From Thermoplasmata archaeon (GTDB taxonomy: Archaea; Thermoplasmatota; Thermoplasmata; Lutacidiplasmatales; UBA184), in NCBI GenBank assembly GCA_021819135.1, contig JAKASE010000009.1, forward strand, positions 15,408 to 79,407: a DNA stretch of 64,000 nucleotides, read 5' to 3'. A model generated the notes under the pieces. That model saw nothing but the letters and a program-made list of their open reading frames with translations. It was not told where the DNA came from and did not search any database. Position 1 is the first letter of the stretch. Each line of letters starts with the position of its first letter. Below, piece after piece: positions 15,249 through 37,246 of this stretch. A program made the position numbers and the translations under genes.

Positions 15249-15503
15249 GACAGCCCACCCTGAGGGTCCGGTGCTTGCCGCAGTGCAGGTCGAGCTCGCT
15301 ATTCAAGGCGGCGGCAGTTTCGGGATTTCCCCTATCCGCGAAGCACACCCTCCAGAGGAGAACAAGGACGACGAACGTCGGGCACCGGACCTTTGGCCGC
15401 CCTCCCGCAGTCCCATCCGCACAGGGTTCGGAGACGCCCTGCCCCCAATTGTACAACGAAAAGCGCACAATATTGATATATTCGTTGAATTCTGTTTAAC
15501 GCT

Positions 15504-15902
15504 GTGCGGACCGCTCGGGCCGACGCTCCCGCGACTCGCTTCCTCGGTGTGCGCCTCACCGCCGAGGAGGAGTCGAACCTCGAGAGGTTCCGAACCGAAC
15601 ACGACTTTGCGAGCCGTTCCGACGCGGTGCGGGCCCTCGTGCGTGCGGCGGTCGAAACGCCCGCCTCCGCGATCGAAGTGCCCACCACGCTGCGGAACGA
15701 GCTCGAGGATCTCGCGGAGGATGGATACGCTCGGGACGTGGGTGAAGCGGCGACGCTCGCCCTCACCCTCGGTATCCGGGAGCTGGCTCGCACGCACGTC
15801 GAACAGCTGACGGCCCTGCGCGAGCGCGCGCGGTCGGCGGCGGACCGGCGGGCGCGACGTCACCGGGCGGACCGGGAGGGTCGGGGACTCCTCGGGCAGT
15901 AG
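15504..15902 (+). CDS. hypothetical protein, possible ribbon-helix-helix DNA-binding fold
   Basis: 132 aa. The N-terminal LGVRLTAEEESNLERFRTEHDFASRSDAVRALVRAAV resembles RHH/CopG-type proteins. No further support. Confidence 0.3.
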   Translation: MRTARADAPATRFLGVRLTAEEESNLERFRTEHDFASRSDAVRALVRAAVETPASAIEVPTTLRNELEDLAEDGYARDVGEAATLALTLGIRELARTHVEQLTALRERARSAADRRARRHRADREGRGLLGQ

Positions 15903-16069
15903 TCTCCGGGTTAGGGGAGCGGTTGCAACATGGAGCCGATGGGGATCGCCTGGAGCGAACGAAGCGGGTTCATCTGTCGACTGTGCCGTCAGGACGCCAA
16001 GCATAATGAGGTGCTGCACATCTCATACTGCCCCGTCCACGGCCTCAGTTCACCCTTGGACCAGCTCCC

Positions 16070-16645
16070 GTGGCGACCGGAGGCGAGAGCATCCCGCGTC
16101 TCTATACCCGCACGGGCGACCGTGGAACCACCGCTCTTGCCGGCGGTTCGCGCGTAGAGAAGGACGCGCCCCGCATCCGCACCTACGGCACCTACGACGA
16201 GCTCGGGGCCTGCCTCGGTCTCGCCTTCGCCGAGCTCCCGGGCGAGCTCGCCGACATCCGGGACGTGGTGCGCAGGCTCGAGCACGAGGTCTACGTCGCC
16301 CAGGCGGAGCTCGCGAACCCCTCCGACCGTCACCCGGCAAAGCACCGGATCTCCCGCGCGCATGTCCGCCGCCTCGAGACGGACATCGACCGGTTCGAGG
16401 GAGCGCACGGGTCGATCCACTCGTTCGTCCTTCCCGGGGGCTCGCGGCCGGCGGCGTTCCTCCATCTCGCGCGCGTCACGGCGCGCCGGGCCGAGCGGGA
16501 ACTGTGGACTCTTCATCGCGCCGAGCCCGTCCGCCCGGAACTCCTCCAGTGGGCGAACCGGCTGAGCGGGCTCCTCTTCGCCCTCGCGCTCGCGACGAAC
16601 CAACGCCTCGGCGTCCCCGAGGTGCCTCCCGACTACACGGTCTGA
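16070..16645 (+). CDS. ATP:cob(I)alamin adenosyltransferase (PduO/MMAB type)
   Basis: Contains IPRLYTRTGDRGTTAL, the PduO-type adenosyltransferase signature, in a ~190 aa helical protein. Confidence 0.75.
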   Translation: MATGGESIPRLYTRTGDRGTTALAGGSRVEKDAPRIRTYGTYDELGACLGLAFAELPGELADIRDVVRRLEHEVYVAQAELANPSDRHPAKHRISRAHVRRLETDIDRFEGAHGSIHSFVLPGGSRPAAFLHLARVTARRAERELWTLHRAEPVRPELLQWANRLSGLLFALALATNQRLGVPEVPPDYTV

Positions 16646-16669
16646 CGGCGGACCGCACGGAGGCTCGCG

Positions 16670-17866
16670 TTGGAGATCGGGGTGGTCGGGAAGCCGAACG
16701 TCGGGAAGTCGACGTTCTTCAACGCGCTCACGCTGCTCGACGCCCCGATGGCCCCGTACCCCTTCACGACGATCGCCCCGAATCGGGGGGTCGGAGCGGT
16801 GCGGGCGAAGTGCCCGCATCCGGAGAAGGGTACCCCGTGCACTCCGGGCAACGCGAAGTGCGTGGACGGGACCCGCTGGATCCCGGTGAACCTCGTGGAC
16901 GTCCCCGGGCTCGTGCCTGGAGCCCATCTCGGGAAGGGCCTCGGCCACAAGTTCCTCGACGACCTCCGGGCGGCCGACGGATTCGTCCAGATCGTCGACC
17001 TGTCCGGCGCGACCGATGCCGAAGGTCGCATCGACTCCCCGGGGGCGCACGACCCGGCGGAGGAGGTCGGCTGGCTCGAGGAGGAGATGGTGGCCTGGAT
17101 CGCGGAGGTCCTCGGCCGTGACTTCAACCGTCAGGCGCGCACCGTCGAGCTCGAGGGACGGAAGCTCGAGGAGTTCCTGGCGCAGCGCCTCACCGGGCTC
17201 TCGATCGCGCCGACGGCGATCGCCTCCGCCCTCCGGAACACGGCGATCGACCGGGCGCACCCGGCGCACTGGTCGGCCGAGGACCTCGCCCGGCTGGGCC
17301 GCGAGCTGCTCCGGGAGTCGAAGCCTCGCCTCGTCGCGGCGAACAAGTGCGACCGCAGTTCCCGCGCGCAGGAGAACGCCCTCTCGAGCGCGATCGCCCC
17401 CATTCCGGTCGTCCCCACGGGCGCGGATGCCGAGCTGACGCTCCGGCGCGCGGCGCGGGCCGGGCTCGTGGAATATCGACCGGGGGACGCGGAGTTCACC
17501 GTGCGCGATCCGGGCCGGCTGTCTCCTCCCCAGGCGAAGGCCCTCGAGGGGATCCGGGCGATCCTCGCGACCTGGGGCTCTACGGGGGTCCAGGCGGCCC
17601 TCGAGCGCATGGTCTACGAGCGGCTCCGCATGATCGTGGTCTATCCGGTAGAGGACGAGACCCATTGGACCGACGGCCAGGGACGGGTGCTGCCCGACGC
17701 CCTGCTGGTGCCGGCCGAGACGACGGCGCGCGCGGTCGCCTACCGGGTCCACACCGATCTGGGGGAGCACTTCATCCGGGCGATCGACGGCCGTACCCAT
17801 CGGGCGCTCGCCGCGGACCATCCGCTCGGACCGAACGCGGTCATCCGGATCGTCGCCCGCAAGTAG
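16670..17866 (+). CDS. YchF/OLA1-family (Obg-like) P-loop ATPase/GTPase
   Basis: TTG start. G1 motif VGKPNVGKST, then FTTIAPNRG (PFCTIEPN-like). ~400 aa with a C-terminal TGS-like region. Confidence 0.7.
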   Translation: MEIGVVGKPNVGKSTFFNALTLLDAPMAPYPFTTIAPNRGVGAVRAKCPHPEKGTPCTPGNAKCVDGTRWIPVNLVDVPGLVPGAHLGKGLGHKFLDDLRAADGFVQIVDLSGATDAEGRIDSPGAHDPAEEVGWLEEEMVAWIAEVLGRDFNRQARTVELEGRKLEEFLAQRLTGLSIAPTAIASALRNTAIDRAHPAHWSAEDLARLGRELLRESKPRLVAANKCDRSSRAQENALSSAIAPIPVVPTGADAELTLRRAARAGLVEYRPGDAEFTVRDPGRLSPPQAKALEGIRAILATWGSTGVQAALERMVYERLRMIVVYPVEDETHWTDGQGRVLPDALLVPAETTARAVAYRVHTDLGEHFIRAIDGRTHRALAADHPLGPNAVIRIVARK

Positions 17867-17884
17867 CGGACGGGTACCCGCGGA

Positions 17885-18859
17885 CTACGGTTCGATCAGC
17901 CGTACCCCGGTGGCCGAAGGCCGGACGACGAACGGCAGCCCACCGGCCCGGGCGAGGCGACGGACGAGCTCGACCTCCTTTCCCGGGACGGGGAGCGCGA
18001 CGATCGAACCGCCGGCGCCGGCCCCGGTGAGCTTCGCCGCTTCGGCGGCCGGTGCGGCCGCCGAGATCAGGGCCTCGAGCCGGGGATGCGAGACCCCCAC
18101 CTCGCGCAGGAGCTCCTGGTTGCGTCCGATCAGTTCGGCGACCCGCGGGCGGTCCCCCTGCTCCACGGCGCGGATCCCATCGCGGGCGACCCGGGTGAAC
18201 TCTTCGAGAAGCCTCGGACCGTCGGACCGGGCGAGCCGTTCGCCGACGGCCCGGACCGCGGTACCCGTCGACCGGGGGATGCCGCTGTGCGCGACGACCC
18301 AGAGCCAGCCGGGATCAGGGACCCGTCGCACCTCCCACTCCCGGTCGGGGCCGCGCACCGTCCAGAGGACCTCCCCGGAGCCTCCGTTGATCGATAGAAA
18401 TCCTCCGCCGACCACCGCCGACGTGTCGCCCGGACTGCCGACCCCCTGGGCCCCCCGCTCGGTCTCGAAGGCGCGCTGCGCGAGGGCCGGGCGGTCGATG
18501 CCTCCGCGCGCCGCCGAGAGGGCCGCGGAGAGGGCGGCCACGAACGCCGCGGACGAGCCGAGGCCGGCGGACTTCGGGATGCGCGAGACCGCGCGCACCG
18601 CGACCGGCGGGCCGTCGGACCAGCTACGGGCGAGGGCGGACCGGAAGTACGGGTTCCGCTCGGTGCCCTCCCGGTCGGTGTTCAGGGAGACCGCCCCGGA
18701 CGGCCGGACGATCACCTGCACCGAGAGGTCGAGGGCAAAGAGGAGCTCGGGCGCCCCGTGGACGACCGCATGCTCGCCGAAGACGATGCACTTGCCCGGG
18801 GCCTCGGCCGACACCGGGAGGGCCCGGGCCGGGATCGGCGGGAGCTCCAACGCGCTCAT
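17885..18859 (-). CDS. mvk: mevalonate kinase (GHMP kinase family)
   Basis: Internal ATG start (MSALELPPIP). Contains APGKCIVFGEHAVVHG and a GHMP motif region (IPKSAGLGSSAAFV). The 125 upstream codons of the ORF-track entry were rejected as junk. Confidence 0.8.
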   Translation of the reverse strand: MSALELPPIPARALPVSAEAPGKCIVFGEHAVVHGAPELLFALDLSVQVIVRPSGAVSLNTDREGTERNPYFRSALARSWSDGPPVAVRAVSRIPKSAGLGSSAAFVAALSAALSAARGGIDRPALAQRAFETERGAQGVGSPGDTSAVVGGGFLSINGGSGEVLWTVRGPDREWEVRRVPDPGWLWVVAHSGIPRSTGTAVRAVGERLARSDGPRLLEEFTRVARDGIRAVEQGDRPRVAELIGRNQELLREVGVSHPRLEALISAAAPAAEAAKLTGAGAGGSIVALPVPGKEVELVRRLARAGGLPFVVRPSATGVRLIEP

Positions 18860-19443
18860 CGGGCCTCCGCGGGGGACAGAGCGACCCGCTCGACGACCTT
18901 CTTGCCCCGCGCCCGAGGCACGACCTTTAGGCGAGCGCCGCGGGGGACGCGAGCGGTCGGAAGGCCGAGGAGCCGTACGAGCGTGACCGCCAGTGCCGCG
19001 ACCTCGCTGTGGGGCTGGCTTCCCACCGAGACATTGACGGTCGCGAGCCGGTAGAGCTCCGACGGGACCTTCGCCCCGCCCACGACGAGGAGGAGGCGAC
19101 GGGCTCGGACGAGACGGGGGGCGACGCGGTCGAGCGGAAGCCCGTACATCGTGAGGTGGACGACCTCCCCGTCGAACTCCCGAACGAGTCGCTTCCACTC
19201 CGTCGCGGGGGCCACCTCGAAGGAGCCGCCCCACCGACGAGTGACCGCGAGGAGGCGCGCGGCGAGATCGGGGTCAGGGGGATGCAGGTAAAGGCGCCGC
19301 GCACCGAGCGCGCGGGCGGTCAGGGCGACGTGCGTGGTCAGCCGGGGATCCCGACCGGGGCGATGCCCGACCCGGAGGACGGAGACCTCGGGAACGGTCC
19401 TAGGAGCCCGGGTCCGCCTGGAACCGCTCGATCCGGTGCCCAC
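18856..19443 (-). CDS. tRNA (cytidine56-2'-O)-methyltransferase aTrm56 (SPOUT)
   Basis: LRVGHRPGRDPRLTTHVALTARALGA matches the aTrm56 N-terminal signature. Its stop overlaps the mevalonate kinase start by 4 nt. The exact start is uncertain. Confidence 0.7.
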   Translation of the reverse strand: MGTGSSGSRRTRAPRTVPEVSVLRVGHRPGRDPRLTTHVALTARALGARRLYLHPPDPDLAARLLAVTRRWGGSFEVAPATEWKRLVREFDGEVVHLTMYGLPLDRVAPRLVRARRLLLVVGGAKVPSELYRLATVNVSVGSQPHSEVAALAVTLVRLLGLPTARVPRGARLKVVPRARGKKVVERVALSPAEAR

Positions 19444-19939
19444 GGTACTCCAGCTTGTCGGAACGCTTGACGATCCCCTTGAGGCGAGTGGCGCTCATCC
19501 CGAGCTCCTCGGCCACGTCGGAGAAGAACCGACCGTCCGGTCCGACCGCCTGGTAGATCTTCTCCTCGATCTTGCCGTACTCCTTCGGCGGCATGGTCGC
19601 GATCGCGAGCACCTCCGAGATCTCCCCGAGCGGGCTCGTGGTGCTGATGTTGATCGTCGAATAGTAGAAATGGTAGCTCTTCTCGGGCTGGCGCTTCCCT
19701 TCCCGGGCGACCCAGCGGGTATCGATCAGGCGGAGCTTCTCGAAGAAGGCGAGCGCCTTCTCGCCCTCCTTGCCGAACTCGGCGCGCATGTCGTCTAGAG
19801 TGAGCCAGCTCTCCCCGAGCCGCTGGACGAGCTTCAGCTTGACCGGCGAGTCCACGGCCCGCAGGATCGGAACGAGGTCGGATACATCGTTCACGACCTT
19901 GATGCGGTGGATGTTCGCGACCATGCGGTCTCCGATCAC
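19400..19939 (-). CDS. hypothetical protein (possible winged-helix regulator)
   Basis: 179 aa ORF with normal amino-acid composition. No family recognised. Overlaps the aTrm56 start by ~44 nt. Confidence 0.35.
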   Translation of the reverse strand: MIGDRMVANIHRIKVVNDVSDLVPILRAVDSPVKLKLVQRLGESWLTLDDMRAEFGKEGEKALAFFEKLRLIDTRWVAREGKRQPEKSYHFYYSTINISTTSPLGEISEVLAIATMPPKEYGKIEEKIYQAVGPDGRFFSDVAEELGMSATRLKGIVKRSDKLEYRGHRIERFQADPGS

Positions 19940-20115
19940 GCGCGGCCGTCCGGGGTCGCCCGTGCGGTGAGCATGCGACGGTACTTCCCGTACCGGTCGG
20001 CCGGGTCAAAACGCGCCGGGTGCGGGGTGCGGGTCGCCCCGCCGCATTCGGGGCACTTCGCCCGGAAGGTGTAGCGCCCGCACCCGCGGCAGACGCGGAG
20101 GATCGATTCCGTCAT
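19936..20115 (-). CDS. nop10: H/ACA ribonucleoprotein subunit Nop10
   Basis: 59 aa (MTESILRVCRGCGRYTFRAKCPECGG...) with a Zn-ribbon CxxC...CxxC, typical of archaeal Nop10. Internal start within the longer ORF-track entry. Confidence 0.8.
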   Translation of the reverse strand: MTESILRVCRGCGRYTFRAKCPECGGATRTPHPARFDPADRYGKYRRMLTARATPDGRA

Positions 20116-20888
20116 GCCCGGACGAACGTCCCTTCCCCTCCGACGGCCTTCACGCTCTTGAGGGCGGCCTCGGTCGCCTTCTTTAGCGTCTCCTCCGCCT
20201 GCTTGTACTGGGCGGCCCGCACGCGAATGCGGTATCGGGGAGCCCCCACGTACTGGACCTCCACCGAGTCCGGGTCGACCTGCTCGGCGGCGAGGAGCGC
20301 CTCCCGGACGTGGTCGAGCCCGTCCGGGCCGGGATCGCTCACCTCGAGCGTGCCGAGGATCGTCACCGAGGGCGGGACGATGTTGTCGTGCGCGACCCGG
20401 AGGAACGCCGCGACCCACGGCACCTTGTCGTTCTCCTTCTGGAACCGCTTCGCGTCGACCGACGCGACCTCGAACGCGCCAAAGAGCGAGCCGTACTTCT
20501 CGACCAGCGCGGGCCCGAACTGGTCGACCGCCTCATCGGTCGGGATCTTGAGCCCCTGGGCGACCTGCTCAACGAGACGCATCGCGCGGGCCTCGTTCTT
20601 CCACGCCTGGACCTTCTCGCGGCGCTGGTGGTCGTTGATGCGCTTCAGCGAGAGATCGACCTGGCCCTTCGACGCATCGACCCGAAGGACGCGGGCCACG
20701 ATCTTCTGGCCCTCGCGGATGTGGTCCCGGATGTACTTGACCCAGCCGGTCGCGACCTCGGAGAGGTGGATGAACGCCTCGCGCTTGTTGTACTCGTCCA
20801 GGGTGACAAAAGCGCCGAAGTTGCGGATCGACGTGACGGTCCCGATGACGAGGTCGCCTTCCTCGGGAAGCTCGGCACGCAGAGGCAT
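20112..20888 (-). CDS. translation initiation factor 2 alpha subunit (aIF2-alpha)
   Basis: 258 aa with an N-terminal S1 domain (GDLVIGTVTSIRNFGAFVTLDEYN...GWVKYIRDHIREGQKIVARVLRVD). Canonical position next to nop10 and S27e/L44e. Confidence 0.9.
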   Translation of the reverse strand: MPLRAELPEEGDLVIGTVTSIRNFGAFVTLDEYNKREAFIHLSEVATGWVKYIRDHIREGQKIVARVLRVDASKGQVDLSLKRINDHQRREKVQAWKNEARAMRLVEQVAQGLKIPTDEAVDQFGPALVEKYGSLFGAFEVASVDAKRFQKENDKVPWVAAFLRVAHDNIVPPSVTILGTLEVSDPGPDGLDHVREALLAAEQVDPDSVEVQYVGAPRYRIRVRAAQYKQAEETLKKATEAALKSVKAVGGEGTFVRA

Positions 20889-28014: not shown

Positions 28015-30396
28015 GTGTCCGCACCGGCCGATCGGGACCGGCCGCCCTCTGGCGGGGCGTGCTGGGAGTTCGGGCCAGGGCTCCCCGAGGCCCCGAGGAG
28101 GGACCGGATCGCCGAATTCCGCAGCGGTGTCCGGACGGCGCTCCGAGTCGCCCACGGCTCCGGGGCATCGTTCTCGCTCCGCATCGTTTCGGGTCCGGAA
28201 CCTCGCGCCGACCTCACGGTCCAGCGCCCGGCGGAACAACGCTGGGCGAGGCGGGCCCTGCTCGCATGCTATCCACCCCACGCGTGGACCGAGGTCCGTA
28301 GGGACGACGGAGGCACGGTCGGGACCCCGGAAGCACGGTTCGCCCGTCGCCTTCGGTCCTGGCAGACCCCGCTCGGGGATCCCGCGGAGGCGCGATCGCT
28401 CTTCGACGCGCTCGTGCTCGCATTCGGGAGCCTCCCGCCCGGGCTATCGCTCGAGCTCGGCGCACGGCCGTTACCGCTGCGACGCCCTCCCTGGTGGGAG
28501 CTCGCGCTCGGATCGGGACCGCCAACCCCCACGACCGAGCGCCCGCCGGCGCTCGGCCGAGCTCCCCGTCCTCCGCCGGGCCCTCCGCCGATCCTTCCCC
28601 GTCCGCTCCTGTGGAACCTTCGGGTCCGCCTCGCGGGACGGCGGTCGATCGATGCCGCGGCGCGTACCGTCGAGCACGTCACCCACGTGGGGACCGACAA
28701 CGGCATCGTCTTCGGCCACTGGCCCCGAAGCATCGGGTCCCGGGGATTCGAGGTCACGGACGAGGAGCTCGTCCTCTTCCTGCCCGGGCCGGAGTGCCCG
28801 GCGATATTCCGGCCTCTCCCGCCGCCGCCGGGGAGCTCCCTCCTTCCCCTCGGACGGACCCGGTCCGGGGCGGTCGTAGGCATCCCGCTCGAGGGTCGAC
28901 AGGGACGCCACCTCGCCATCCTCGGGGAGACCGGGATGGGGAAGAGCTCCCTGCTCGTCGCCCTCGCCCATCGGATGGGCCGGGACCACGGGATCGTGCT
29001 GCTCGACCCGGTCGGGGAGACGGCGGAGGCGTTCGACCGCCATATCGACCCGCGAGCGCTCGGTACGAGGTACCTTCGCATCGACCCGGTCCTCTCGCCG
29101 GTCCGGGTCAACGCGCTCGAAGGGATCGGCCCTCCCGAGGTCGACTCGACCCGATCGGAGCGGCGCCTCAACGACCTCGTGCACGCGTTCCGCCGGGTCC
29201 GCGCCGGCCGGTATGCGGGAGGCTTCTGGGGTCCGCGCATCGATGAGATGGTCACGCGGGCGCTCCGCGCGGCCGCGGTGATCGAGAAGGGAACGATCGC
29301 CGATGCCCACGCCCTCCTGGCCACGGGGGGACGCACCTACCGGGACCTGCCTCCGGCATCGCTCGGTCCGATGCGCGAGCTCGCCGAACGGATCCGCGAG
29401 CGACCGGACGACGCCGAGGGGGCCCGTCGGCTGCTCTACGAGCTCGTCCGGAGCGCCACCCTCGAGCGGATGCTCTCGGCCCGGGACCCGGATCTCTCGA
29501 TCGACGATCTGGTGGCCCCGGGCCGGGTCGTCGTGATCTCGGGCCACGCCGCCCGGGTCGGCGAATCGACCGCCCGGTACCTCCTTTCCGTGTACCTCGC
29601 GCTCGTCTGGTCGTCCCTCCTCGCGCAGCGCGTCCCGGCGAAGACGTTCGTCCTGCTCGATGAGGCGCAGTGGTTCGCGCACGAGAGCCTCGCCGAGATG
29701 CTGACGCTCGGCCGCAAGCGGAACGTCCACGTCGTCCTGGCGACGCAATCGGTCGGGTCGCTCGAGCCGGAGTCTCTGCCGCCGGCAGTGTGGACGAACG
29801 TCGCGGACTTCGTCGCCTTTCGGGGCTCACCGGCCGAGGCGAAGGAGTTCGCGGCGCTCACGGTCGGCATCACCCCCGAGCAGTTGCTCGCCCTCCCGCG
29901 AGGGGAGGCCGCGGCCCTCCGGGGGAAGGGGACCTCCGTCCGCTGGATCCGGACCGCCCGCCTTCCGTCGCGGGAGCCCGTCGGAGAGCCGAGCCGCCCC
30001 GCCACGGACTCCCGTCCGAGCCCGGGGCCAGGACGGGCCTTCGAACGCTCGAGTGAGGCACCGGCCAGCCCCCCGCACGGGGCGCCTTCGCCGGGCGACG
30101 CGACGCCACCGACGGGTGAGGAGTCCCTCGTCGAGCATCTTCGAGCGCGGGCGGGGGGGACGGACCCGGGGGCGCTGCTGCGCGTCCCGCTCGACGAGCT
30201 CCGGGCCCGCGCGGGCTCGGACGAGGGGGTCGTCCGCCGGGTCGGCGGTCGGCTGGGACGGACCGGGGCCCTCGTTCGACGCGAGGAGGGCCCGGACGGG
30301 GGGGTCTGGGTGATCGATCCGACCCGGCTCCCGCCCCCGGGCGACATGCCCGAAGGGGGAACCGACCGGGGAGGTTCTTCCCCACGACAATCATAA
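28015..30396 (+). CDS. HerA/FtsK-superfamily (DUF87-like) P-loop ATPase with ~250-aa Pro-rich N-terminal extension and Pro/Gly-rich C-terminal tail
   Basis: Walker A (AILGETGMGKSSLL), Walker B (TFVLLDEAQWFAHES) and downstream VHVVLATQS, typical of HerA/FtsK/VirB4-type ATPases. No TM segment seen. The N-terminal ~250 aa and the C-terminal 120 aa are low-complexity, so the true start may be further downstream. Confidence 0.6.
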   Translation: MSAPADRDRPPSGGACWEFGPGLPEAPRRDRIAEFRSGVRTALRVAHGSGASFSLRIVSGPEPRADLTVQRPAEQRWARRALLACYPPHAWTEVRRDDGGTVGTPEARFARRLRSWQTPLGDPAEARSLFDALVLAFGSLPPGLSLELGARPLPLRRPPWWELALGSGPPTPTTERPPALGRAPRPPPGPPPILPRPLLWNLRVRLAGRRSIDAAARTVEHVTHVGTDNGIVFGHWPRSIGSRGFEVTDEELVLFLPGPECPAIFRPLPPPPGSSLLPLGRTRSGAVVGIPLEGRQGRHLAILGETGMGKSSLLVALAHRMGRDHGIVLLDPVGETAEAFDRHIDPRALGTRYLRIDPVLSPVRVNALEGIGPPEVDSTRSERRLNDLVHAFRRVRAGRYAGGFWGPRIDEMVTRALRAAAVIEKGTIADAHALLATGGRTYRDLPPASLGPMRELAERIRERPDDAEGARRLLYELVRSATLERMLSARDPDLSIDDLVAPGRVVVISGHAARVGESTARYLLSVYLALVWSSLLAQRVPAKTFVLLDEAQWFAHESLAEMLTLGRKRNVHVVLATQSVGSLEPESLPPAVWTNVADFVAFRGSPAEAKEFAALTVGITPEQLLALPRGEAAALRGKGTSVRWIRTARLPSREPVGEPSRPATDSRPSPGPGRAFERSSEAPASPPHGAPSPGDATPPTGEESLVEHLRARAGGTDPGALLRVPLDELRARAGSDEGVVRRVGGRLGRTGALVRREEGPDGGVWVIDPTRLPPPGDMPEGGTDRGGSSPRQS

Positions 30397-30423
30397 TAGG
30401 GTACGGAACGGCTCTCGCTACCG

Positions 30424-31257
30424 ATGGCATCGACAGTGGAGAGCCCTCCGACGGACTCCTCCCCTCCGCCGGTGCCGACCGAACCGAACCCGCCCGCGAC
30501 CCTGATGAGCGCGGCGAACGTCCTCGCCCGCTGCGCGACCGGGATCGAGGGACTCGACAATGTCCTGGAAGGCGGGATCCCGCGGGGCAACATGGTCCTC
30601 GTCGCCGGGAGCGTGGGCACCGGCAAGACGACCCTCTGCCTCGAGTTCCTCGTCCACGGCGCGGAACGGGGGGAGCGCTCGCTCTTCATCTCGGTCACCG
30701 AGTCGTCCTCGAAGCTCATCCAGAACCTCTCGACGTTCGAGTTCTTCCGACGGGACCTGATCGAGCAGGGCTCGCTGGTCTTCGTGGACCTGCCGGCGAT
30801 CTACGACCGCCTCGGGCTCGGTCGGGAGGAGATGACCTCGGAGGAGATCGACATCCTCATCCGGACGATCCGGGACATGGTGAAGTCCCTCGGGGTCCGG
30901 CGTCTCGTGCTCGACAGCCTCACGTCGGTATGCTACCGGATCCGGCGGGACGAGCAGATCCGCGATTTCATGCTCCGCCTCGGCCAGGAGCTCAACGAGC
31001 TCGGGTGCACCTCGCTCCTCGTCTCCGAGATCGGTCCGAACCCGGCCCGCTACTCCCTGCATGGGGTCGAGGAGGCGATCGTCGACGGGGTGATCCTCCT
31101 GTGGAACACGCGTCGGATGGGGGACATCCTCCGGGTCGTCCAGATCGTGAAGATGCGGGGGACCGCGCATTCGCGCGCGCAGTACGTCCTCGAGCTCACC
31201 CCGATCGGGATCCTGATGGCGCCCCACCTGAAGGGCGGGCGCGAGGGGGGCACCTAG
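30424..31257 (+). CDS. KaiC-like RecA-superfamily ATPase (single domain, intact motifs)
   Basis: GIEGLDNVLEGGIPRGNMVLVAGSVGTGKTTLCLEFL (Walker A), catalytic Glu region ISVTESSS, Walker B RRLVLDSLTSV. C-terminal VVQIVKMRGTAHS matches COG0467 KaiC/RadB-like proteins. Confidence 0.8.
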   Translation: MASTVESPPTDSSPPPVPTEPNPPATLMSAANVLARCATGIEGLDNVLEGGIPRGNMVLVAGSVGTGKTTLCLEFLVHGAERGERSLFISVTESSSKLIQNLSTFEFFRRDLIEQGSLVFVDLPAIYDRLGLGREEMTSEEIDILIRTIRDMVKSLGVRRLVLDSLTSVCYRIRRDEQIRDFMLRLGQELNELGCTSLLVSEIGPNPARYSLHGVEEAIVDGVILLWNTRRMGDILRVVQIVKMRGTAHSRAQYVLELTPIGILMAPHLKGGREGGT

Positions 31258-31261
31258 TCCC

Positions 31262-31843
31262 GTGCCGCTCGACATCGGCGAGCGGCTCCGCTCGCTCCCG
31301 AGCGGGAGCGCGGTCGCCCTCAAGCTCGATCCGCGGGAGTACGCCGACCACTACTTCGCGGTGCTGAACGCGACCCTGCGTGACGTCGGGAGCGAGACGA
31401 ACGTCCACACGATCTACGTCGCGGTGACGAACCCCGCCGCGTTCGTCTGGTCGCTCGCGCAGGCGCTCGACGTGCCGATCGACCGGATCAGCTTCGTGGA
31501 CGCGATCAGCCACATCATGATGAACTACGCGAACTCGCTCCCGAACGCGACGTACGTCGACAGCCCGCGGGCGCTCGAGGAGATCATGCTGCGCGTGGAG
31601 TACCTCCTGCGGAAGTTCCCGCATCCCCGCTCGATCGTCGTCATCGACAGCGTGAACTCGCTCGCGATTCACAACCCGCCCGAGCTCCTCAGCGAGTTCT
31701 TCCACATCCTCCTCAACAATCTCAAGAGCCGTCCGGTCCTCACGCTCGTGCTCGAGACGTCGGAGGAAGAGGCGACCGGCGTCGAGCAGATGCTGAACCT
31801 CGTGGTCGACGAGACGATCGACGTCGCCCGCGCGGGTCGGTGA
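31262..31843 (+). CDS. KaiC-like fold protein with degenerate Walker A (predicted ATPase-inactive paralogue)
   Basis: 193 aa with a RecA/KaiC-like layout (SIVVIDSVNSLAI Walker-B-like strand). The P-loop is replaced by LPSGSAVALKLD, with no GK[ST]. Confidence 0.5.
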   Translation: MPLDIGERLRSLPSGSAVALKLDPREYADHYFAVLNATLRDVGSETNVHTIYVAVTNPAAFVWSLAQALDVPIDRISFVDAISHIMMNYANSLPNATYVDSPRALEEIMLRVEYLLRKFPHPRSIVVIDSVNSLAIHNPPELLSEFFHILLNNLKSRPVLTLVLETSEEEATGVEQMLNLVVDETIDVARAGR

Positions 31844-31850
31844 ACTCCTG

Positions 31851-32633
31851 ATGGTCGAGACGCAGAACATCTTCGGGATCCCCGAGGTCGACACCCCGCT
31901 CTCGACGGCGCTGCCGTTGGGATGGCTCGCGCTCCTGAGCGGGACCTCCGGCTCGGGGGCCCCCCTGCTCGCGAAACAGTTCGCCCACGCCGGCGTCGGG
32001 AGCGTCCCGGTCCTGTTCTACACGACCTACGAGCGGACCGCCGACGTCCGCTCGACGTTCGAGGACCTCGGGTGGGACCCGACCTCGGTCACGGTCGTCA
32101 ACCTCGCGGACGAGTACTACGAGCGGGTCCTCGTCCGGGGCCTCGACGTCGCCCGGGCCCGGGAGGTCGGGCTCTCGATCGAGGAGATCATGGAGATGCG
32201 CCCCGCCAGCGCGACGCTCGGCTCGTTCAGCCTGACGAACCGGATGCTGAGCGACCTCGCCGCGATCGACAGCCCGTTCCGGCTCGTGGTCGACTCGATC
32301 GACTTCTTCTTCGAGGTCCTCGAGCCGCAGGACGTCACCATGGTCGCCCGCCAGATCCGCCACCGGTGCCAGACGATCGGCGGTCAGGCGCTCCTCACCG
32401 CGCACTCGATCGCGCACGACCGGGCGGTCTTCGGCCTCCTCCAGGACCTCGCCGACGTCGTGTTCGAGCTCAAGGGGGAGCCTCGCGGGGACCACTACGA
32501 CCACGCGCTGTATCTCGAGAAGATCGCGAACCGTCCGGACCTCACCCACATCTGGGACGCGATCGTCGGGGAGTCCGGCTGGCACGTCGAACCCCGGAAG
32601 ATGCCCCGGGGCGACAAGATACCCTCGGCGTAA
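31851..32633 (+). CDS. KaiC-like fold protein with degenerate Walker A (second inactive paralogue)
   Basis: 260 aa. The P-loop position reads LLSGTSGSGAPLLAKQF, lacking Lys and Thr. Walker-B-like FRLVVDSIDFFF is retained. Confidence 0.5.
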   Translation: MVETQNIFGIPEVDTPLSTALPLGWLALLSGTSGSGAPLLAKQFAHAGVGSVPVLFYTTYERTADVRSTFEDLGWDPTSVTVVNLADEYYERVLVRGLDVARAREVGLSIEEIMEMRPASATLGSFSLTNRMLSDLAAIDSPFRLVVDSIDFFFEVLEPQDVTMVARQIRHRCQTIGGQALLTAHSIAHDRAVFGLLQDLADVVFELKGEPRGDHYDHALYLEKIANRPDLTHIWDAIVGESGWHVEPRKMPRGDKIPSA

Positions 32634-32681
32634 GCCAACCTTTAAGGCGGCCCCGCGGCTCCTTGCCGCGAGGCAGGGACC

Positions 32682-33467
32682 GTGGAGGACGTCGTCATCC
32701 GGACGCTCGATCAGGTCGAGCTCCGCGACCCGATCCTCGTGGAAGGGCTCCCCGGGGTCGGGAACGTCGGGAAGCTCGCGGCGGACTACCTGCGTGAGCA
32801 GCTCGGCGCGAAGCCGCTCGCGACCGTCTATTCGAAGTTCTTTCCCCCCCAGGTCTACGTCTCGGAAGAGGGGATCATCCGGCTCGTCTCGAACGACCTG
32901 TACTACTGGCGGGCGCCTGCGAGCGCCCACCATGACGTCCTCATCCTGGGCGGGGACTACCAGGGGATCAGCCCCGAGGGCCAGTACGAGATCACGCACC
33001 GCGTCCTCGACTACTGCCACGGGCTCGGCGTCCGGGAGGTCTTCACGCTCGCCGGCTTCGCCCAGGGGCGGGTCGTGGAGACGCCCCGGGTGCTGGGCGC
33101 GGCCACCCTGCCGACCCGAGTCGAGTCGCTCAAGAAGCACGGGGTGGTCTTCTCCCGGAACGATCCGGGCGGGGGGCTCATCGGGGCGAGCGGGCTGTTC
33201 CTCGGCCTCGGTCGCCTGTTCGGGATGGAGGGGGCCTGCCTGATGGGGGAGACGAGCGGCTATTTTGTCGACCCACGGAGCGCGGAGGCCGTCCTCAAGG
33301 TCCTGGGACGGGTCCTCGAGGTCCCGATCGACTTCGCCGCGCTCGAGGCGAAGGCGCAGGAGATCGACCGCATCGCCCAGAAGATCCACGAGGCCGAGCA
33401 GCGGACCGCCGAGCCGACGTCCGCGACGGGTCCCGCCTCCCGCGAGGACCTCGGATACATCGGCTAG
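32682..33467 (+). CDS. PAC2-family protein (proteasome assembly chaperone-like)
   Basis: LVEGLPGVGNVGKLAADYL N-terminal signature of archaeal PAC2/PbaA-like proteins. ~260 aa. Confidence 0.65.
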   Translation: MEDVVIRTLDQVELRDPILVEGLPGVGNVGKLAADYLREQLGAKPLATVYSKFFPPQVYVSEEGIIRLVSNDLYYWRAPASAHHDVLILGGDYQGISPEGQYEITHRVLDYCHGLGVREVFTLAGFAQGRVVETPRVLGAATLPTRVESLKKHGVVFSRNDPGGGLIGASGLFLGLGRLFGMEGACLMGETSGYFVDPRSAEAVLKVLGRVLEVPIDFAALEAKAQEIDRIAQKIHEAEQRTAEPTSATGPASREDLGYIG

Positions 33468-33477
33468 AGCCCCGTCC

Positions 33478-34638
33478 GTGCCCGATCGGGACGCGGGACC
33501 GAGGGCCCCCAGCGCTTCCCGGACCGACGACCCCGAACGGGCCCGGCGCCTCCTCGATCATCTCGCGCGTGAGCCGCGGTCCGACGCGTTCATCCCGTTC
33601 GACCGGTTCATGGAGCTCGCCCTCTACGCGGAGGACGCCGGCTTCTACGCCACCGACCGCTCCCCCCTCGGTGCCGAGGGCGACTACTACACGGCCGCCC
33701 ACGCGTCTCCCCTCTTCGGGCAGACGATCGCCGCCCACCTGGCCGCGGTGCATCACGCGCTCGGCCGAGACCGGCCGTTCCGGGTCGTCGAGCTCGGGCC
33801 CGGGGACGGCACGCTCGCCCGCACCGTGCTCGAATCGTTCGGGTCCGGCGAGCGCCTCGGGGGCGAGATCGAGTACGCCCTCGTCGAGCGCTCGGAGCGA
33901 CTCGCCGAACGGGCGTACCGCGAGACTGACGCCGCCGCTCACCGCGCCGGGATTCCGCTCCGCGTCCGGGGATCGGTCGGCGAGGAAGGGCCGTTCGAGG
34001 GGGTCGTACTCGCGAACGAGGTGCTCGACGCCCAGCCGGCGCGCCGCCTCCGATGGACCGGCACGGCGTGGCGCGAGCTTGGCGTACGGATCGAGGCCGG
34101 CCGAGTCGTTCCGGCCGAAGCGCCGCCGCTCCCGGTCCCGCCTCCCGAGCTTCCGGTGCCCTCCGAGGTCGGGACGATACTCGAGATCTCTCCCGCAGCC
34201 GAGGCCCTGGTCCGGGAGGTCGGCGACCATCTCGTCCGCGGGGCGTTCGTGCTGTTCGATTATGGGATGGAGGAGGCCGAGCTCCTGAAGGGGCACCCAA
34301 GCGGCACCCTCGCCGCGGTCCGAGGCCACCGGGCGGGGATCGATCCGTTCGAGGCCCCCGGGACCGCCGACCTCTCGATGTTCGTCAACTTCGGTCGGAT
34401 CCGCTACGCATCGCGGAGGGCCGGGCTCGAGGAGGCCGCCTACTGCTCCCAGGCCGAGGCGCTCGGGCTCTGGGGCCTCTCGGCCCGGATCGAGGAGGCG
34501 ATGCAGACCGCCCCCTCCCCGGCGGAAGAGGTCCGGCTCCGCCTCTCGGCGAAGAACCTCATGTTCGGCTTCGACACCTTCCGACTCCTCGAACTCGCGC
34601 CGCCGGCGAGCGCCGCGGCCATCCGGTCGGTCACGTAG
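33478..34638 (+). CDS. MidA/NDUFAF7-like (DUF185) SAM-dependent methyltransferase
   Basis: FDRFMELALYAEDAGFYAT...GDYYTAAHASPLFGQTIAAHL and RVVELGPGDGTLA (SAM motif I) match DUF185. The GTG start at 33478 was chosen because the upstream ORF part overlaps the PAC2 gene. Confidence 0.65.
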   Translation: MPDRDAGPRAPSASRTDDPERARRLLDHLAREPRSDAFIPFDRFMELALYAEDAGFYATDRSPLGAEGDYYTAAHASPLFGQTIAAHLAAVHHALGRDRPFRVVELGPGDGTLARTVLESFGSGERLGGEIEYALVERSERLAERAYRETDAAAHRAGIPLRVRGSVGEEGPFEGVVLANEVLDAQPARRLRWTGTAWRELGVRIEAGRVVPAEAPPLPVPPPELPVPSEVGTILEISPAAEALVREVGDHLVRGAFVLFDYGMEEAELLKGHPSGTLAAVRGHRAGIDPFEAPGTADLSMFVNFGRIRYASRRAGLEEAAYCSQAEALGLWGLSARIEEAMQTAPSPAEEVRLRLSAKNLMFGFDTFRLLELAPPASAAAIRSVT

Positions 34639-35350
34639 TGGGCCGCTCGGGTCCGACGGAGACCGGCTCTGCGACCGCGGCGTCGATCAGAAGCTTCGCG
34701 ATCTCGGCCGGTAGCGAGACGAGGTCGTCGGTGCGCAGGTCGAGCGTCTCCACCCCGACCTCGATCGGTCGACCGCCCTTCAGGATCCGCAGGTACCGGA
34801 GATCGGTTCGGGGCAGGCCCGGCTTCGCTGCCGGCGGCGGGGTCGCCGGAGGCGTGGGAGCCGGAGCGGAAGGGGCGGGAGGAAGGGATGGCGGGGGCGG
34901 TGTGCGGGCCGTCGGGCCGGGAGCCGCCGCAGCCCCCGAAGGCTCGAGGTACGGGGCCGCGGTGCGCCGGTGCTCGAGGATGGCCCGGAGCACCTGGTCG
35001 AACAGGGACCGCTCCTCGCTGAGAGCGTTCGGAAGATCCCGGGCCCCTCCGATGCTCGCCTGGAACGCGGCGGTCACGACCTTTTGGGCGCGTCCCTCAA
35101 CGACATCCCGCGCGAGCTGGCTCGCCCGCTGGTAGGTCTGTCGGGCGAGCTCCCCTTTCCGGCCCGAGGGGTTCTCGCGCAGGTCCGCCTCGTAGCTCCG
35201 TCGGACCTCGGCGAGGTACGCGGCGGTGGTCGCGTAGAAGTCGTGCGGGAGCTTCGAGAGCCCCCGGACCGCGGATTCGTTCCGCCGCCATTCGAGGAGG
35301 AGTGAGAATTGGTCGGGCATCTCCGGGTCCGCGAGCGCCTCCCACTCCAC
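34631..35350 (-). CDS. GINS complex subunit Gins51 (Gins15)
   Basis: N-terminal A-domain signature (LSKLPHDFYATTAAYLAEVRRSYE) and C-terminal B-domain (LRYLRILKGGRPIEVGVETLDLRTDDLVSLPAEIAKLLIDAAVAEPV). The Pro/Ala-rich linker is unusually long. Confidence 0.65.
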   Translation of the reverse strand: MEWEALADPEMPDQFSLLLEWRRNESAVRGLSKLPHDFYATTAAYLAEVRRSYEADLRENPSGRKGELARQTYQRASQLARDVVEGRAQKVVTAAFQASIGGARDLPNALSEERSLFDQVLRAILEHRRTAAPYLEPSGAAAAPGPTARTPPPPSLPPAPSAPAPTPPATPPPAAKPGLPRTDLRYLRILKGGRPIEVGVETLDLRTDDLVSLPAEIAKLLIDAAVAEPVSVGPERPTT

Positions 35351-35542
35351 ATAGGTATACTTCGTTGGCGGTCATCGCTCGGTGGGGCGGAGGACCCCCT
35401 TGCGGGACCGAGCGCCTTCCGCCCCGTTCTCCATGCGATCACGCCTCCGGCCGGACCGCAGAGGAAGGAGGAACATGCGGAGAACGGAGCCGGCCCCCTC
35501 GGGACAGGGCACCTGCGCACGCTCCACGACACCATACGCAAT

Positions 35543-36688
35543 ATGCTGCGAAATACACCATTTTTATACGCGGAAACCGCGCCAGGCGCAAGGCACGGCG
35601 TATGGAATGTCGTCCCGGACCTCGTGCGCACCGCGCCCCGGGTCGCTCTCAACGAGACCGAGCGAAGGATCCTCACCGGGTGGGCCAACCCCTCCGGGTC
35701 GCCGGATGCGCGGACCGTTCGGGCCCGGATCATCCTCGCCGCCTCCGAAAGACGCTCGAACCGGGAGATCGCGATGGCCCTGGGGCTCTCTCCCTCGACC
35801 GTCGGACGTTGGCGGAGACGGTTCGCGGTCTACGGACTGCGGGGGATACGGTATTCGGCTCCCCCCGCGCGGCTTCCGTCGACCGCTCGGGCCCGCCGGG
35901 AGCGCCGGGTCCTCCGCACGCTGCTCTCGCGGCCGCCTCCCGGAGCGCGGTGGAGCGTGCGGAGTCTCGCCCGGCACCTCGGGCTGAACCACATGTTCGT
36001 GTTCCGTACCTTGCGAAAGTACGGCTACGAACCGCGGACCGCGCTCCAGCGACGCGGCGAGCGGAGGGCGCGTTCGCTCGACGTGACCGGCCTCTACCTG
36101 GGGCCCCTGACCCGGGGGATCGCGTTCGCCCGAGGCCTTCCCGCTCCATCGCCCAGCGTGGGGACTCCGCCGGGCGCGACCGCCTCCGGGTCGCTCCCGA
36201 GCGACCCGCTCCTTCGCTCGGTCGGGGACGCGCGCGGGGAGTTCGAGTGGTTGCTGGCGGAGTCCTCCCGGATGCTGCGGTGGGGCGGCGAGCGGTCGCT
36301 CCGGGCCGCGCGGTACGACCTCTTGATCTTCCTCCAGGCCCTGGAGCGTTCCGTTCACGGCGCCACATCCTTCGAGGCGATCGTCTTCTCGCAGGACCCG
36401 ATGGTCCGGCAGCGGGCGGAGCGGTGGCTCTCCGCGCATCCGCGCTGGCGCCTCGCCTGGGCCGACTCCCTCGCAGAGTGGACGGAAGCCGTCGAGCGGA
36501 TGCTCCCGGGTCCCCGCCCCGGGAACGCCCGTCGCGCGACGCTTGGCTCGATCGACTCGCTCTTCGCCGGCGTGACCCGGGCCGCGGGCCGGACGGGGCC
36601 CGACCCGGACTCCCTCGTCTGGATGTGGAGATCCCCCGCGCCGTCGCTCGTTCCGGCGCGACCGGCGGTCCCGGACCCTCATCGGTGA
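35543..36688 (+). mobile_element. IS630/Tc1-family transposase-like gene, apparently degenerate (possible pseudogene or domesticated copy)
   Basis: N-terminal tandem HTH typical of IS630 (ETERRILTGW...SNREIAMALGLSPSTVGRWRRRFAVYGLRGI...WSVRSLARHLGL..VFRTLRKYGYEP). Followed by DVTGLYLGP and a C-terminal region aligning to the IS630 DDE domain (FLQALERSV...AIVFSQDPMVRQRAERWLSAHPRWRLAWADSLAEWTEAVE). The canonical first acidic residue context (SVDEKSQ) is not recognisable. The start is uncertain: ATG 35543 or GTG 35624. A TTTTTATA box lies at 35561-35568. Confidence 0.55.
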
Positions 36689-36728
36689 CGGGCGCCGCAT
36701 CGCTCGGGTCGGCGGGATCGGGGGTCCG

Positions 36729-37178
36729 TTACCGGTCGGGGGACCGGACGAACTGGTCGAGGGTGCCGCCCAGTTGTTCGGCGATACGACGGGCCCAGCC
36801 GTACAGTCCCTCGACGTGGACGAGCTCGCCGCGCAGGATGTGGGCGAAGCGACGCCGGTACTCGAGATCGAGATCGACCCGCTCCGCCTCGAGGAACCCC
36901 TTGAGCCGCCGGGCGAACTGGCCGCCCTCCGCGTCCCAGTCGGTCAGCAGGATCACGGGGCGGCTCTGGCCGACGAGCCGGTGGGCGGTCTTCGATAGGG
37001 TCTCTCCGCGGTGGATCAGAAGGATCGGCCCGTCGAGGCCGAGACGACGCAGCGCGCGCCGGTCCCGTTCCCCTTCGACGACGACGACCGCCCCCTCCTC
37101 CTCGCTCGCGCTCTTGAGCTTCTGCCAGAGCTCGACGAACGCTTCGAACGCCGCCTCGGCATCCCGTCCGTTGCGCAT
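36729..37178 (-). CDS. small Toprim-domain protein
   Basis: 149 aa from an internal ATG. Contains VVVVEGERDRRALRRLGL and ILLTDWDAEG, i.e. Toprim E...DxD motifs. The upstream part of the long ORF-track entry was rejected. Confidence 0.5.
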   Translation of the reverse strand: MRNGRDAEAAFEAFVELWQKLKSASEEEGAVVVVEGERDRRALRRLGLDGPILLIHRGETLSKTAHRLVGQSRPVILLTDWDAEGGQFARRLKGFLEAERVDLDLEYRRRFAHILRGELVHVEGLYGWARRIAEQLGGTLDQFVRSPDR

Positions 37179-37246
37179 CGTCCCGAAGGTCCACGCCCCG
37201 GTCGGACCGGGTCGGCGCGTTCCGCGAACGGGAGAGCCCGGGGGGA

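Follow-up and report, generated by a model that had tools for sequence, protein, structure and literature searches.

A 64,000-nucleotide stretch of contig JAKASE010000009.1 from a Thermoplasmata archaeon, referred to here as the window, carries five open reading frames (ORFs), designated A to E, on the + strand at 28015-33467. Three of them, B, C and D, encode one intact and two degenerate KaiC-like proteins and are the main subject of this report; A, upstream, encodes a motor ATPase and E, downstream, a PAC2-family protein. A preliminary description of this DNA, made from the sequence alone, listed five co-directional genes with spacers of 4-48 nt. The ORF coordinates agree, with spacers of 27, 4, 7 and 48 nt, as does the base composition by codon position, which in A to E follows the order GC3 >> GC1 > GC2 that marks real genes in a genome of ~70% G+C. 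The G+C content of the window is ~70% and is flat over the locus. The features of the locus are as follows.

28015-30396, + strand: gene A, 793 amino acids (aa), a soluble ATPase of the FtsK-HerA superfamily, TrwB(VirD4)/VirB4/DptH type; DUF87 E=8e-9
28015-28830, + strand: N-terminal α/β domain of A (aa 1-272), from an AlphaFold2 (AF2) model and conserved residues, with one disordered Pro-rich loop
30115-30315, + strand: C-terminal winged-helix-like domain of A (aa 701-767), from the topology of the AF2 model
30383-30399, + strand: BRE/TATA-like element, CACGACAATCATAATAG in the window, assigned from position and consensus
30424-31257, + strand: gene B, 277 aa, intact single-domain KaiC-like ATPase; PF06745 E=6e-58
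31262-31843, + strand: gene C, 193 aa, predicted KaiC/RecA-fold pseudo-ATPase without a P-loop; KaiC E=3e-6
31851-32633, + strand: gene D, 260 aa, predicted KaiC-fold pseudo-ATPase with a P-loop that lacks Lys and Thr; KaiC E=3e-10
32682-33467, + strand: gene E, 261 aa, PAC2/proteasome-assembly-chaperone family; PAC2 E=5e-52

All of the motifs quoted in the preliminary description are present in the translations of A to D, and B is, as had been proposed, a canonical single-domain KaiC-like ATPase. It scores 196 bits against PF06745 (cut-off 26.6) and retains an intact Walker A (GSVGTGKT, within GSVGTGKTT), a Glu in VTES after the second strand and a Walker B motif, LVLDS (within LVLDSLTS). The PDB matches include KaiC chains (E=1e-54) and the single-domain protein PH0186 (E=3e-38), and there are weak matches to RadA, RadB and Rad51 models, at about 1e-8 for RadA/RadB. 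A circadian KaiC has two domains in tandem, CI and CII, and is accompanied by KaiB (and KaiA). B has a single domain, and reaches 107 bits with TIGR02655 (cut-off 546) and 155 bits with PRK09302 (cut-off 408). Models for ArlH, also known as FlaH, give similarly low scores, namely 42 bits for NF052589 (cut-off 215) and 52 bits for PRK06067 (cut-off 194), and the neighbour annotation contains no arl genes in the window or at related loci. On these sequence comparisons B is a member of the KaiC family that is neither a circadian KaiC nor an ArlH. The statement that no KaiA/KaiB, NurA, Mre11/Rad50 or archaellum gene is adjacent also agrees with the annotation of the window and related loci, in which none is called among the neighbours.

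The Walker A Lys and Thr are missing from both of the KaiC-fold paralogues that follow, as originally noted. In the translation of C, LPSGSAVALKLD occupies the position at which a P-loop is expected and there is no P-loop; in D, the glycines are kept but Ala-Pro replaces Lys-Thr (GTSGSGAP, within GTSGSGAPLL). With the Pfam KaiC model, C scores 27.3 bits, just over the cut-off of 26.6, and D scores 40.4 bits; D also matches KaiC in the PDB (E=5e-6), and a sequence search with C against the PDB returned only spurious matches. As a three-way alignment of B, C and D is too divergent to trust, assignments were made from Pfam and from structure prediction. A fold check of the degenerate proteins had been suggested, and a Foldseek search with the AF2 model of C (predicted local distance difference test score, pLDDT, 91) finds PH0284 and KaiC, followed by chains of Elp456 at E of about 1e-5. 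The alignment with the single KaiC-like domain of PH0284 is full length, at a template-modelling (TM) score of 0.70-0.74 normalised to the query, indicating that C is not truncated, and TM scores for the Elp456 chains are 0.53-0.59. Judged from their sequences, C and D are members of the family by fold and pseudo-enzymes by loss of the P-loop. In the model comparison the resemblance to Elp456 is real at the level of the fold, but weaker than the resemblance to KaiC.

An exhaustive search for homologues of C returned 501 representatives. Among them is a stand-alone family of ~190 aa that is 30-40% identical and has the motifs YI..T.P, FVD.IS, ESPTMLE, DS.N.L.IHN and LSEFLH in its alignment; some members of the C family are labelled 'FlaH' by the Joint Genome Institute (JGI). 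The same type of domain also forms the C-terminal domain of proteins with a TPR/SNAP and Ig-like scaffold and of membrane-anchored proteins, and so looks like a widely reused adaptor domain. P0284, P0299 and P0306 (900-1776 aa) are giant soluble TPR/SNAP plus CARDB/Ig-like proteins that end in a C-type domain, the smaller proteins P0301, P0327 and P0272 have a transmembrane segment ahead of it, and in P0273 it occurs together with DUF835. No membrane anchors were found in the giant TPR/CARDB proteins, which limits a reading of these proteins as receptors to the smaller fusions.

To place the trio in context, loci were collected at two distances. A genome scan with a seven-sequence alignment kept 80 loci, all at least 69% identical. 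Across 84 related loci, which represent ~80 species and carry the names 'Thermoplasmata archaeon', UBA184 or Candidatus Lutacidiplasmatales, the order purF, Nop5, fibrillarin, DRG (opposite strand), A, B, C, D, PAC2, Methyltransf_28, a 239-aa gene, Toprim and L15e is kept over 13 kb wherever the contig extends. As this neighbourhood is collinear throughout, synteny within the clade cannot separate an operon from inherited gene order. Neighbouring genes change at very different rates. Identity to the window is 69-93% for C, 66-87% for B, 64-90% for PAC2 and 73-89% for L15e, 45-80% for D and 34-55% for A, and the conservation of B and C is on a par with that of ribosomal protein L15e and the DRG GTPase. 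C and the gene A directly upstream of the trio thus differ sharply in the same genomes (L001-L084). In L170, from a sister lineage with a C that is 66% identical, a gene for a surface protein of 1103 aa lies between A and B (L170 5852-9163). The inserted protein has a NosD-like β-helix, many N-x-S/T sequons and a C-terminal membrane anchor. In one related locus, L002 (6787-11166 of a 2.18-Mb contig), several short gene calls stand in place of each of A, B and D, which are intact in the near-identical L001; the breaks look like long-read frameshift errors rather than pseudogenes.

The second scan, of metagenomes and limited to the distant branch, used the pattern [VI]ESPTMLE, which gave 80 loci that were annotated with custom profiles. 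Flanks were described from profiles and a coarse context list only, as crude clustering of ORFs produced spurious antisense ORFs at high G+C and was dropped. In all, 85 distant loci were available. B lies directly upstream of C wherever the flank reaches, and in most cases the stop codon of one abuts or overlaps the start codon of the other. It had been foreseen that the KaiC-like genes might not be syntenic in relatives, and might then be independent paralogues; the linkage of B to C at these 85 loci answers that concern. D is found in 13 of 54 loci. In L087, the order is B-C-D followed by two Pilin_N genes, and in L089 only B and C are present; in two contexts of the Methanomassiliicoccales type the B-like and C-like genes overlap, and downstream of them is a Pilin_N gene. 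Identity between the window and L087 is 62% for B, 38% for C and 32% for D (the last over its full length, E=7e-44), and the L087 orthologue of D has an equally degenerate P-loop, GPPGAGLE. These one-to-one orthologues, with the shared degeneracy of D, indicate that both the trio and its inactivations are ancient.

A pilin gene is the consistent companion of the distant module. All 56 of the distant loci that have at least 700 nt of flank carry, on the same strand and no more than 400 nt downstream, a Pilin_N gene whose product has a class III signal peptide; PF07790 is recorded for such pilin genes. At least five unrelated flanking contexts were distinguished, and the linkage of B-C(-D) to the pilin gene has therefore outlived rearrangement of what surrounds it. 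In the 655 kb that surround the 85 distant B-C loci, up to 8 kb from B-C, neither phmmer nor a profile built from 49 A sequences detected an A-like ORF, and phmmer found no PAC2 ORF either. From gene order and sequence, B-C-D is a genuine module that appears ancestral in Thermoplasmatota.

Within the clade of the window, the module is preceded by a conserved element, CACAACCCTC[T/A]TAG in consensus, that overlaps the stop codon of A and in the window ends 24 nt upstream of the B ATG. It lies at a fixed 23-24 nt from this ATG in 33 of 47 related loci, and the intergenic bases that follow, CGGCTCGTTTC, are likewise conserved. In an archaeal promoter, the geometry of a transcription factor B recognition element (BRE) and TATA box fits a leaderless or short-leader transcript. 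Position and consensus suggest that the element may be a BRE with a TATA-like box for a leaderless or short-leader B-C-D mRNA, and that B-C-D probably has its own promoter in the clade of the window. As a separate observation, ~40 nt across the A stop codon and the A-B spacer (window 30383-30423; L001-L073) are conserved at the nucleotide level, in a gene whose tail is otherwise variable.

Gene A encodes a P-loop motor with Walker A GETGMGKS, Walker B LLDEAQ (within LLDEAQWF) and the motif VVLATQS. It was introduced as a HerA/FtsK-type ATPase. Its place in the FtsK-HerA superfamily stands, supported by DUF87, but the HerA label is imprecise as TrwB, VirB4 and DptH are nearer. In Pfam, TrwB_AAD_bind follows DUF87 at E=5e-5, barely above its cut-off, and the best profile match is to PADLOC mad8 (E=6e-23). 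The NCBIfam models for HerA, VirB4 and TrbE all score far under their cut-offs, for example 18.8 bits for TIGR00929 (VirB4_CagE; cut-off 643), and no transmembrane segment is predicted. Of 287 homologues returned, nearly all of the best 120 are 44-58% identical and come from the same kind of metagenome-assembled genome; most are ~790 aa long with query coverage of 90-99%, and one, on GCA_027377435.1, is an identical partial copy.

The AF2 model of A (pLDDT 84.7; predicted TM score 0.74) has five parts. An α/β N-terminal domain (aa 15-250, pLDDT mostly >90) with repeated β-α-β elements is followed by a P-loop motor, at about aa 275-650, that carries a helical insertion; after a Pro-rich, disordered linker at aa 657-697 there is a compact domain of helices and strands (aa 701-767), and the tail is disordered. 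The first ~250 aa had been described as Pro-rich, but Pro-rich sequence is confined to a single disordered loop at about aa 160-197 and the remainder is a folded domain. The alternative that this region is non-coding was tested and does not hold, given the folded model and R76, W77, R80 and W91, which are invariant in an alignment of 49 homologues; the domain is also alignable in L001 and L003. Similarly, the Pro/Gly-rich C-terminal tail resolves into the disordered linker and a folded domain that follows it. That domain is composed of helices 701-714, 726-733 and 737-749 and strands 722-725, 753-759 and 762-767 (pLDDT 88-96), with R741, G744, L747 and W765 conserved in the same alignment, and from this topology is read as a winged helix. 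Pfam searches with the N-terminal domain alone and the C-terminal tail alone gave no match.

Fold comparisons were made with the whole model of A against the PDB rather than domain by domain. Foldseek places full-length TrwK/VirB4 first (E=2.5e-13, ~830 aligned columns). In the structure comparison, the score and number of aligned residues are 26.3 and 345 for TrwB/VirD4, 25.5 and 328 for the VirB4 C-terminal domain, 24.6 and 320 for the DptH/DndH C-terminal domain, 22.2 and 340 for DotL, 20.1 and 325 for HerA and 15.9, with 539 residues of TrwK aligned, for full-length TrwK/VirB4. By its model, A is nearer to TrwB/VirD4, VirB4 and DptH than to HerA, at only 17-19% identity to TrwB/VirD4, VirB4 and DptH/DndH, and structural neighbours also include the defence ATPases DptH, TdpA, HerA-Sir2 and HerA-DUF. 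A has the motor domain with an all-α insertion that characterizes VirB4/VirD4 motors, its two-domain length and layout resemble full-length VirB4 and its N-terminal domain superposes partly on that of VirB4. HerA is defined by an N-terminal HAS β-barrel and a HerA-type RecA core, usually with NurA or a defence effector as partner, and A does not fit this definition. Unlike TrwB/VirD4 and VirB4, A has no membrane anchor and has an extra C-terminal winged-helix-like domain; family sequence models do not recognize it as part of a VirB4/VirD4 system and, in contrast to type IV secretion system (T4SS) and Dnd systems, the neighbour annotation has no VirB3, VirB6, VirB8, relaxase or Dnd/Dpt partner gene near it. 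Unlike conjugative ATPases, it is chromosomal, vertically inherited and limited to one clade. A is probably a separate hexameric motor, possibly with a nucleic-acid-binding winged helix, and its family is an orphan conjugation-type motor that is chromosomally fixed in a widespread order of soil archaea.

The assignment of the last gene, E, to the PAC2 fold is secure, with 177 bits for PF09754 (cut-off 25.8) and 267 bits for TIGR00162 (cut-off 200). Compared with archaeal PAC2 proteins of the PbaA/PbaB type, E passes both thresholds and nothing in it is unusual; only in this clade does it lie next to the KaiC-like trio. An AT-rich sequence, TTTAAG, occurs ~38 nt upstream of the E start codon. 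E is an ordinary PAC2 protein and probably lies outside the B-C-D module. At the related loci a Methyltransf_28 (PF02636) gene, 33502-34638 in the window, is always found 3′ of PAC2 on the same strand; its conservation is poor (38-61% identity), and the two genes may be on one transcript.

KaiC-family ATPases are recurrently linked to archaeal type IV pilus (T4P) loci, where they are predicted regulators (PMC4858521), and in Haloferax volcanii the KaiC-like protein CirA controls archaellum genes through a pathway that depends on pilins (PMC10983859). The references given in PMC12448462 describe ArlH as the KaiC-like partner of the archaellum motor ATPase, ArlI. The constant pilin neighbour of the distant loci suggests that the output is directed at the cell surface or a type IV filament, and we favour, with moderate confidence, a reading in which the core of the locus is a heteromeric B-C-D switch, similar to ArlH and CirA, that is tied to such a system. 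With B, C and D packed so tightly, the three proteins would be expected in roughly equal amounts, and they may assemble into a heteromeric RecA-type ring or stack. ATP would be hydrolysed by B alone, which may also autophosphorylate, and C and D would be structural or adaptor subunits that pass the nucleotide or phosphorylation state of B to partners and thereby help to regulate or assist the filament or surface system. The earlier comparison of the trio to sets of active and inactive RecA-like subunits fits an ancient module with one live and two dead members, although the complex itself is inferred. In the UBA184/Lutacidiplasmatales-type clade, the adjacent pilin gene has gone and the module is flanked by the clade-specific A and a housekeeping PAC2 gene; its output may have changed there, and A is a candidate partner.

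Several observations weigh against this reading. The 64-kb window contains no pilin-like ORF, so that the pilin link rests on orthologues in other lineages; the pilin adjacency that marks the T4P-associated class of KaiC-like genes is seen at the 56 distant loci and not in the window, and the linkage may not hold in its clade. Nor are PilB/PilC-type genes seen beside the distant loci, in the custom profiles and the Pfam tables of four loci, neither of which was dedicated to such genes. The gap from C to the pilin gene is usually 150-190 nt and does not establish co-transcription. A adjoins B in ~80 of ~80 species of the clade, and a clade-specific coupling of the two is possible. Finally, the last residues of A are consistently P-Q-P-S, and as the element ahead of B overlaps these PQPS-stop codons, constraint on the protein could account for some of its conservation.

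Measured against known systems, B-C-D resembles ArlH in having a gene for a single-domain KaiC-like ATPase beside type IV filament genes and in the proposed nucleotide- or phosphorylation-dependent switch that docks on a hexameric motor. It was recognized in advance that the cassette might prove to be an ArlH/ArlI-type module; the pilin linkage does point to a T4P-associated role, but B fails the ArlH models. B also differs from ArlH in having one or two dedicated pseudo-ATPase paralogues alongside and no arlI, arlJ or archaellin gene nearby, and the ATPase in the window is of the TrwB/VirB4 type rather than the ArlI/GspE type that partners ArlH. Makarova and colleagues reportedly presented archaeal KaiC-like ATPases as signal-transduction hubs (mBio, 2017). 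With the T4P-associated KaiC-like hub ATPases (PMC4858521) and CirA (PMC10983859), the module shares stand-alone KaiC-like genes linked to T4P loci, and in the hubs inactivated KaiC-type domains (DUF835, DUF7504, DUF7090) serve, as C and D may do, as partner or adaptor modules. It differs from the described hubs in being a fixed operon, in Thermoplasmatota, of B, a C of ~190 aa without a P-loop, an optional D and a pilin gene. The clade of the window departs further, with a PAC2 neighbour instead of the pilin gene found at distant B-C loci and a TrwB/VirB4-like ATPase upstream. Among archaeal single-domain KaiC/RecA ATPases of solved structure (PH0284, PH0186 and SSO2452), PH0284 is the best structural match of C and PH0186 a strong sequence match of B, with the single domain matched. 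Their P-loops are intact, in contrast to those of C and D, and the window differs further in encoding three paralogues side by side. The eukaryotic heteromers Elp456 and BCDX2 are also built from RecA/KaiC-fold paralogues, some with degenerate nucleotide sites. Their likeness to the trio extends to weak fold and profile similarity, with no specific sequence affinity and no linkage to Elp3 or RadA, and the partner of the trio is a pilin gene.

The preliminary description had joined A to E into one machine, with an FtsK/HerA-superfamily motor and a KaiC-like heterohexamer acting in DNA/RNA processing or secretion. This is unlikely, but has most in its favour after the switch, namely the co-directional genes with short spacers, the A-B-C-D-PAC2 order in ~80 species (and in L170, with one insertion), and the precedent, from the references in PMC12448462, of a KaiC-like ArlH on a secretion-superfamily hexamer, ArlI. 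The TrwB/VirB4-type motor and the winged-helix-like domain of A are also in keeping with such a machine. VirB4 is the pilus-biogenesis ATPase of conjugative systems, a role that would suit a module linked to pilin genes elsewhere. The purF-Nop5-fibrillarin-DRG...Methyltransf_28...L15e order is, however, equally conserved, so that adjacency in the clade carries no specific signal. Neither A nor PAC2 occurs within 8 kb of B-C at the distant loci, L170 has an extra gene separating A from B, B is preceded by a promoter-like element, A changes much faster (34-55% identity) than B and C (66-93%), and PAC2 is a widespread stand-alone archaeal family (TIGR00162). The narrower proposal, without PAC2, pairs A with B-C-D in the manner of ArlI and ArlH; by that analogy a functional link is possible. 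In its most explicit form, a conjugation-type motor with a DNA-binding winged helix would be gated by a ring of one live and two dead KaiC-like subunits and would serve DNA or protein translocation or the assembly of a non-canonical filament, which we regard as doubtful, and somewhat more so than the five-gene machine.

It is improbable that the trio loads or remodels recombinase filaments as a recombination or repair mediator akin to aRadC, RadB or the Rad51 paralogues, a scheme in which A would be a DNA translocase. Such a role would accord with the weak RadA, RadB and Rad51 matches of B, the active plus inactive set reminiscent of BCDX2, the FtsK-HerA-type motor and winged-helix-like domain of A, and the GINS-like, Toprim and primase genes of some neighbourhoods. 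The KaiC match of B is, however, at E=6e-58 compared with about 1e-8 for the RadA/RadB models, the pilin gene is the sole partner conserved across lineages, there is no nuclease, Mre11/Rad50 or NurA gene nearby, and C-type domains are fused to TPR and membrane sensor-like proteins and not to DNA-binding modules.

Even less probable is an anti-virus defence system built on a HerA/DptH/mad8-like ATPase. Both it and a role in DNA processing, which had been raised at the outset, lose favour given that the trio is consistently partnered by a type IV pilin gene (56/56 loci). The mad8 profile match, the defence ATPases among the structural neighbours of A and the fast evolution of A are what such a system would predict. 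Against it, the genes are single-copy, vertically inherited and fixed among ribosomal and RNA-processing genes in ~80 species, no effector such as a nuclease, Sir2 or a methyltransferase lies next to them, and composition is flat. PADLOC recognizes no other component: C, D and E have no match and B matches only the same P-loop model, weakly. Membership of the MADS defence system, which calls for mad8 with other mad genes, was rejected, as the mad8 match stands alone in a housekeeping context; the MADS preprint contains no description of the mad8 domain. Gene context and composition also speak against readings of the locus as a defence island or mobile element.

The slightest prospect is an Elp456-like B-C-D heterohexamer that handles tRNA or other RNA as the archaeal counterpart of the Elongator accessory complex, for although two of the three paralogues are inactive, genes for RNA modification lie nearby (fibrillarin/Nop5, a SpoU methylase and a THUMP protein), Elp456 chains are among the Foldseek matches of C and there are recurrent sub-threshold matches to Elong_Iki1 (Elp5) in 6 of 19 C-family members (best E=1e-4) and to PAXNEB (Elp4) for B and its orthologues, the PAXNEB (20 bits, cut-off 28) and Iki1 scores (15.6-19.2 bits, cut-off 22.5) fall short of family membership and are weaker than those for KaiC, the TM scores are lower than for PH0284/KaiC, no Elp3-type radical-SAM/acetyltransferase gene was seen adjacent at any locus, D is absent from most distant lineages, and the pilin linkage is left unexplained.

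KaiC-like ATPases are among the most abundant uncharacterised regulators of Archaea and their wiring is almost unexplored. The locus offers a clean case, a fixed operon with one active and one or two inactive KaiC-fold subunits. If the heteromeric ring exists, Elp456 and the complexes of Rad51 paralogues would have a parallel in prokaryotes, and the ring would be a model for how pseudo-KaiC domains such as DUF835, DUF7504 and DUF7090 plug sensors and scaffolds into KaiC hubs. In the literature that we checked, we found no description of the fixed B-C(-D)-pilin operon or of the clade-specific A family; both fit within the existing KaiC-hub concept and do not overturn current views, but make an existing hypothesis sharper.

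Other features were noted in the surroundings. In L085 (Methanomassiliicoccales), a type III-A CRISPR cluster (Cas10/Csm1, Csm2 and RAMP genes; 13634-20570) begins ~1 kb past the B-C-linked pilin gene, and is probably an unrelated neighbour. Downstream of the five genes, the window has a 459-aa ORF with HTH_23/HTH_28/HTH_29 matches (35309-36688, + strand) that is absent from 84 of 84 related loci, and the adjacent Toprim gene (36729-37202) is on the - strand, in contrast to the + strand in 59 of 59 related loci. This pattern is suggestive of a local insertion and inversion over 35309-37202, perhaps involving a transposase-like element. Upstream, 13281-15248 on the - strand encodes a protein of 655 aa in which TPR repeats are joined to the catalytic domain of a class III adenylate/guanylate cyclase (E=1.5e-16).

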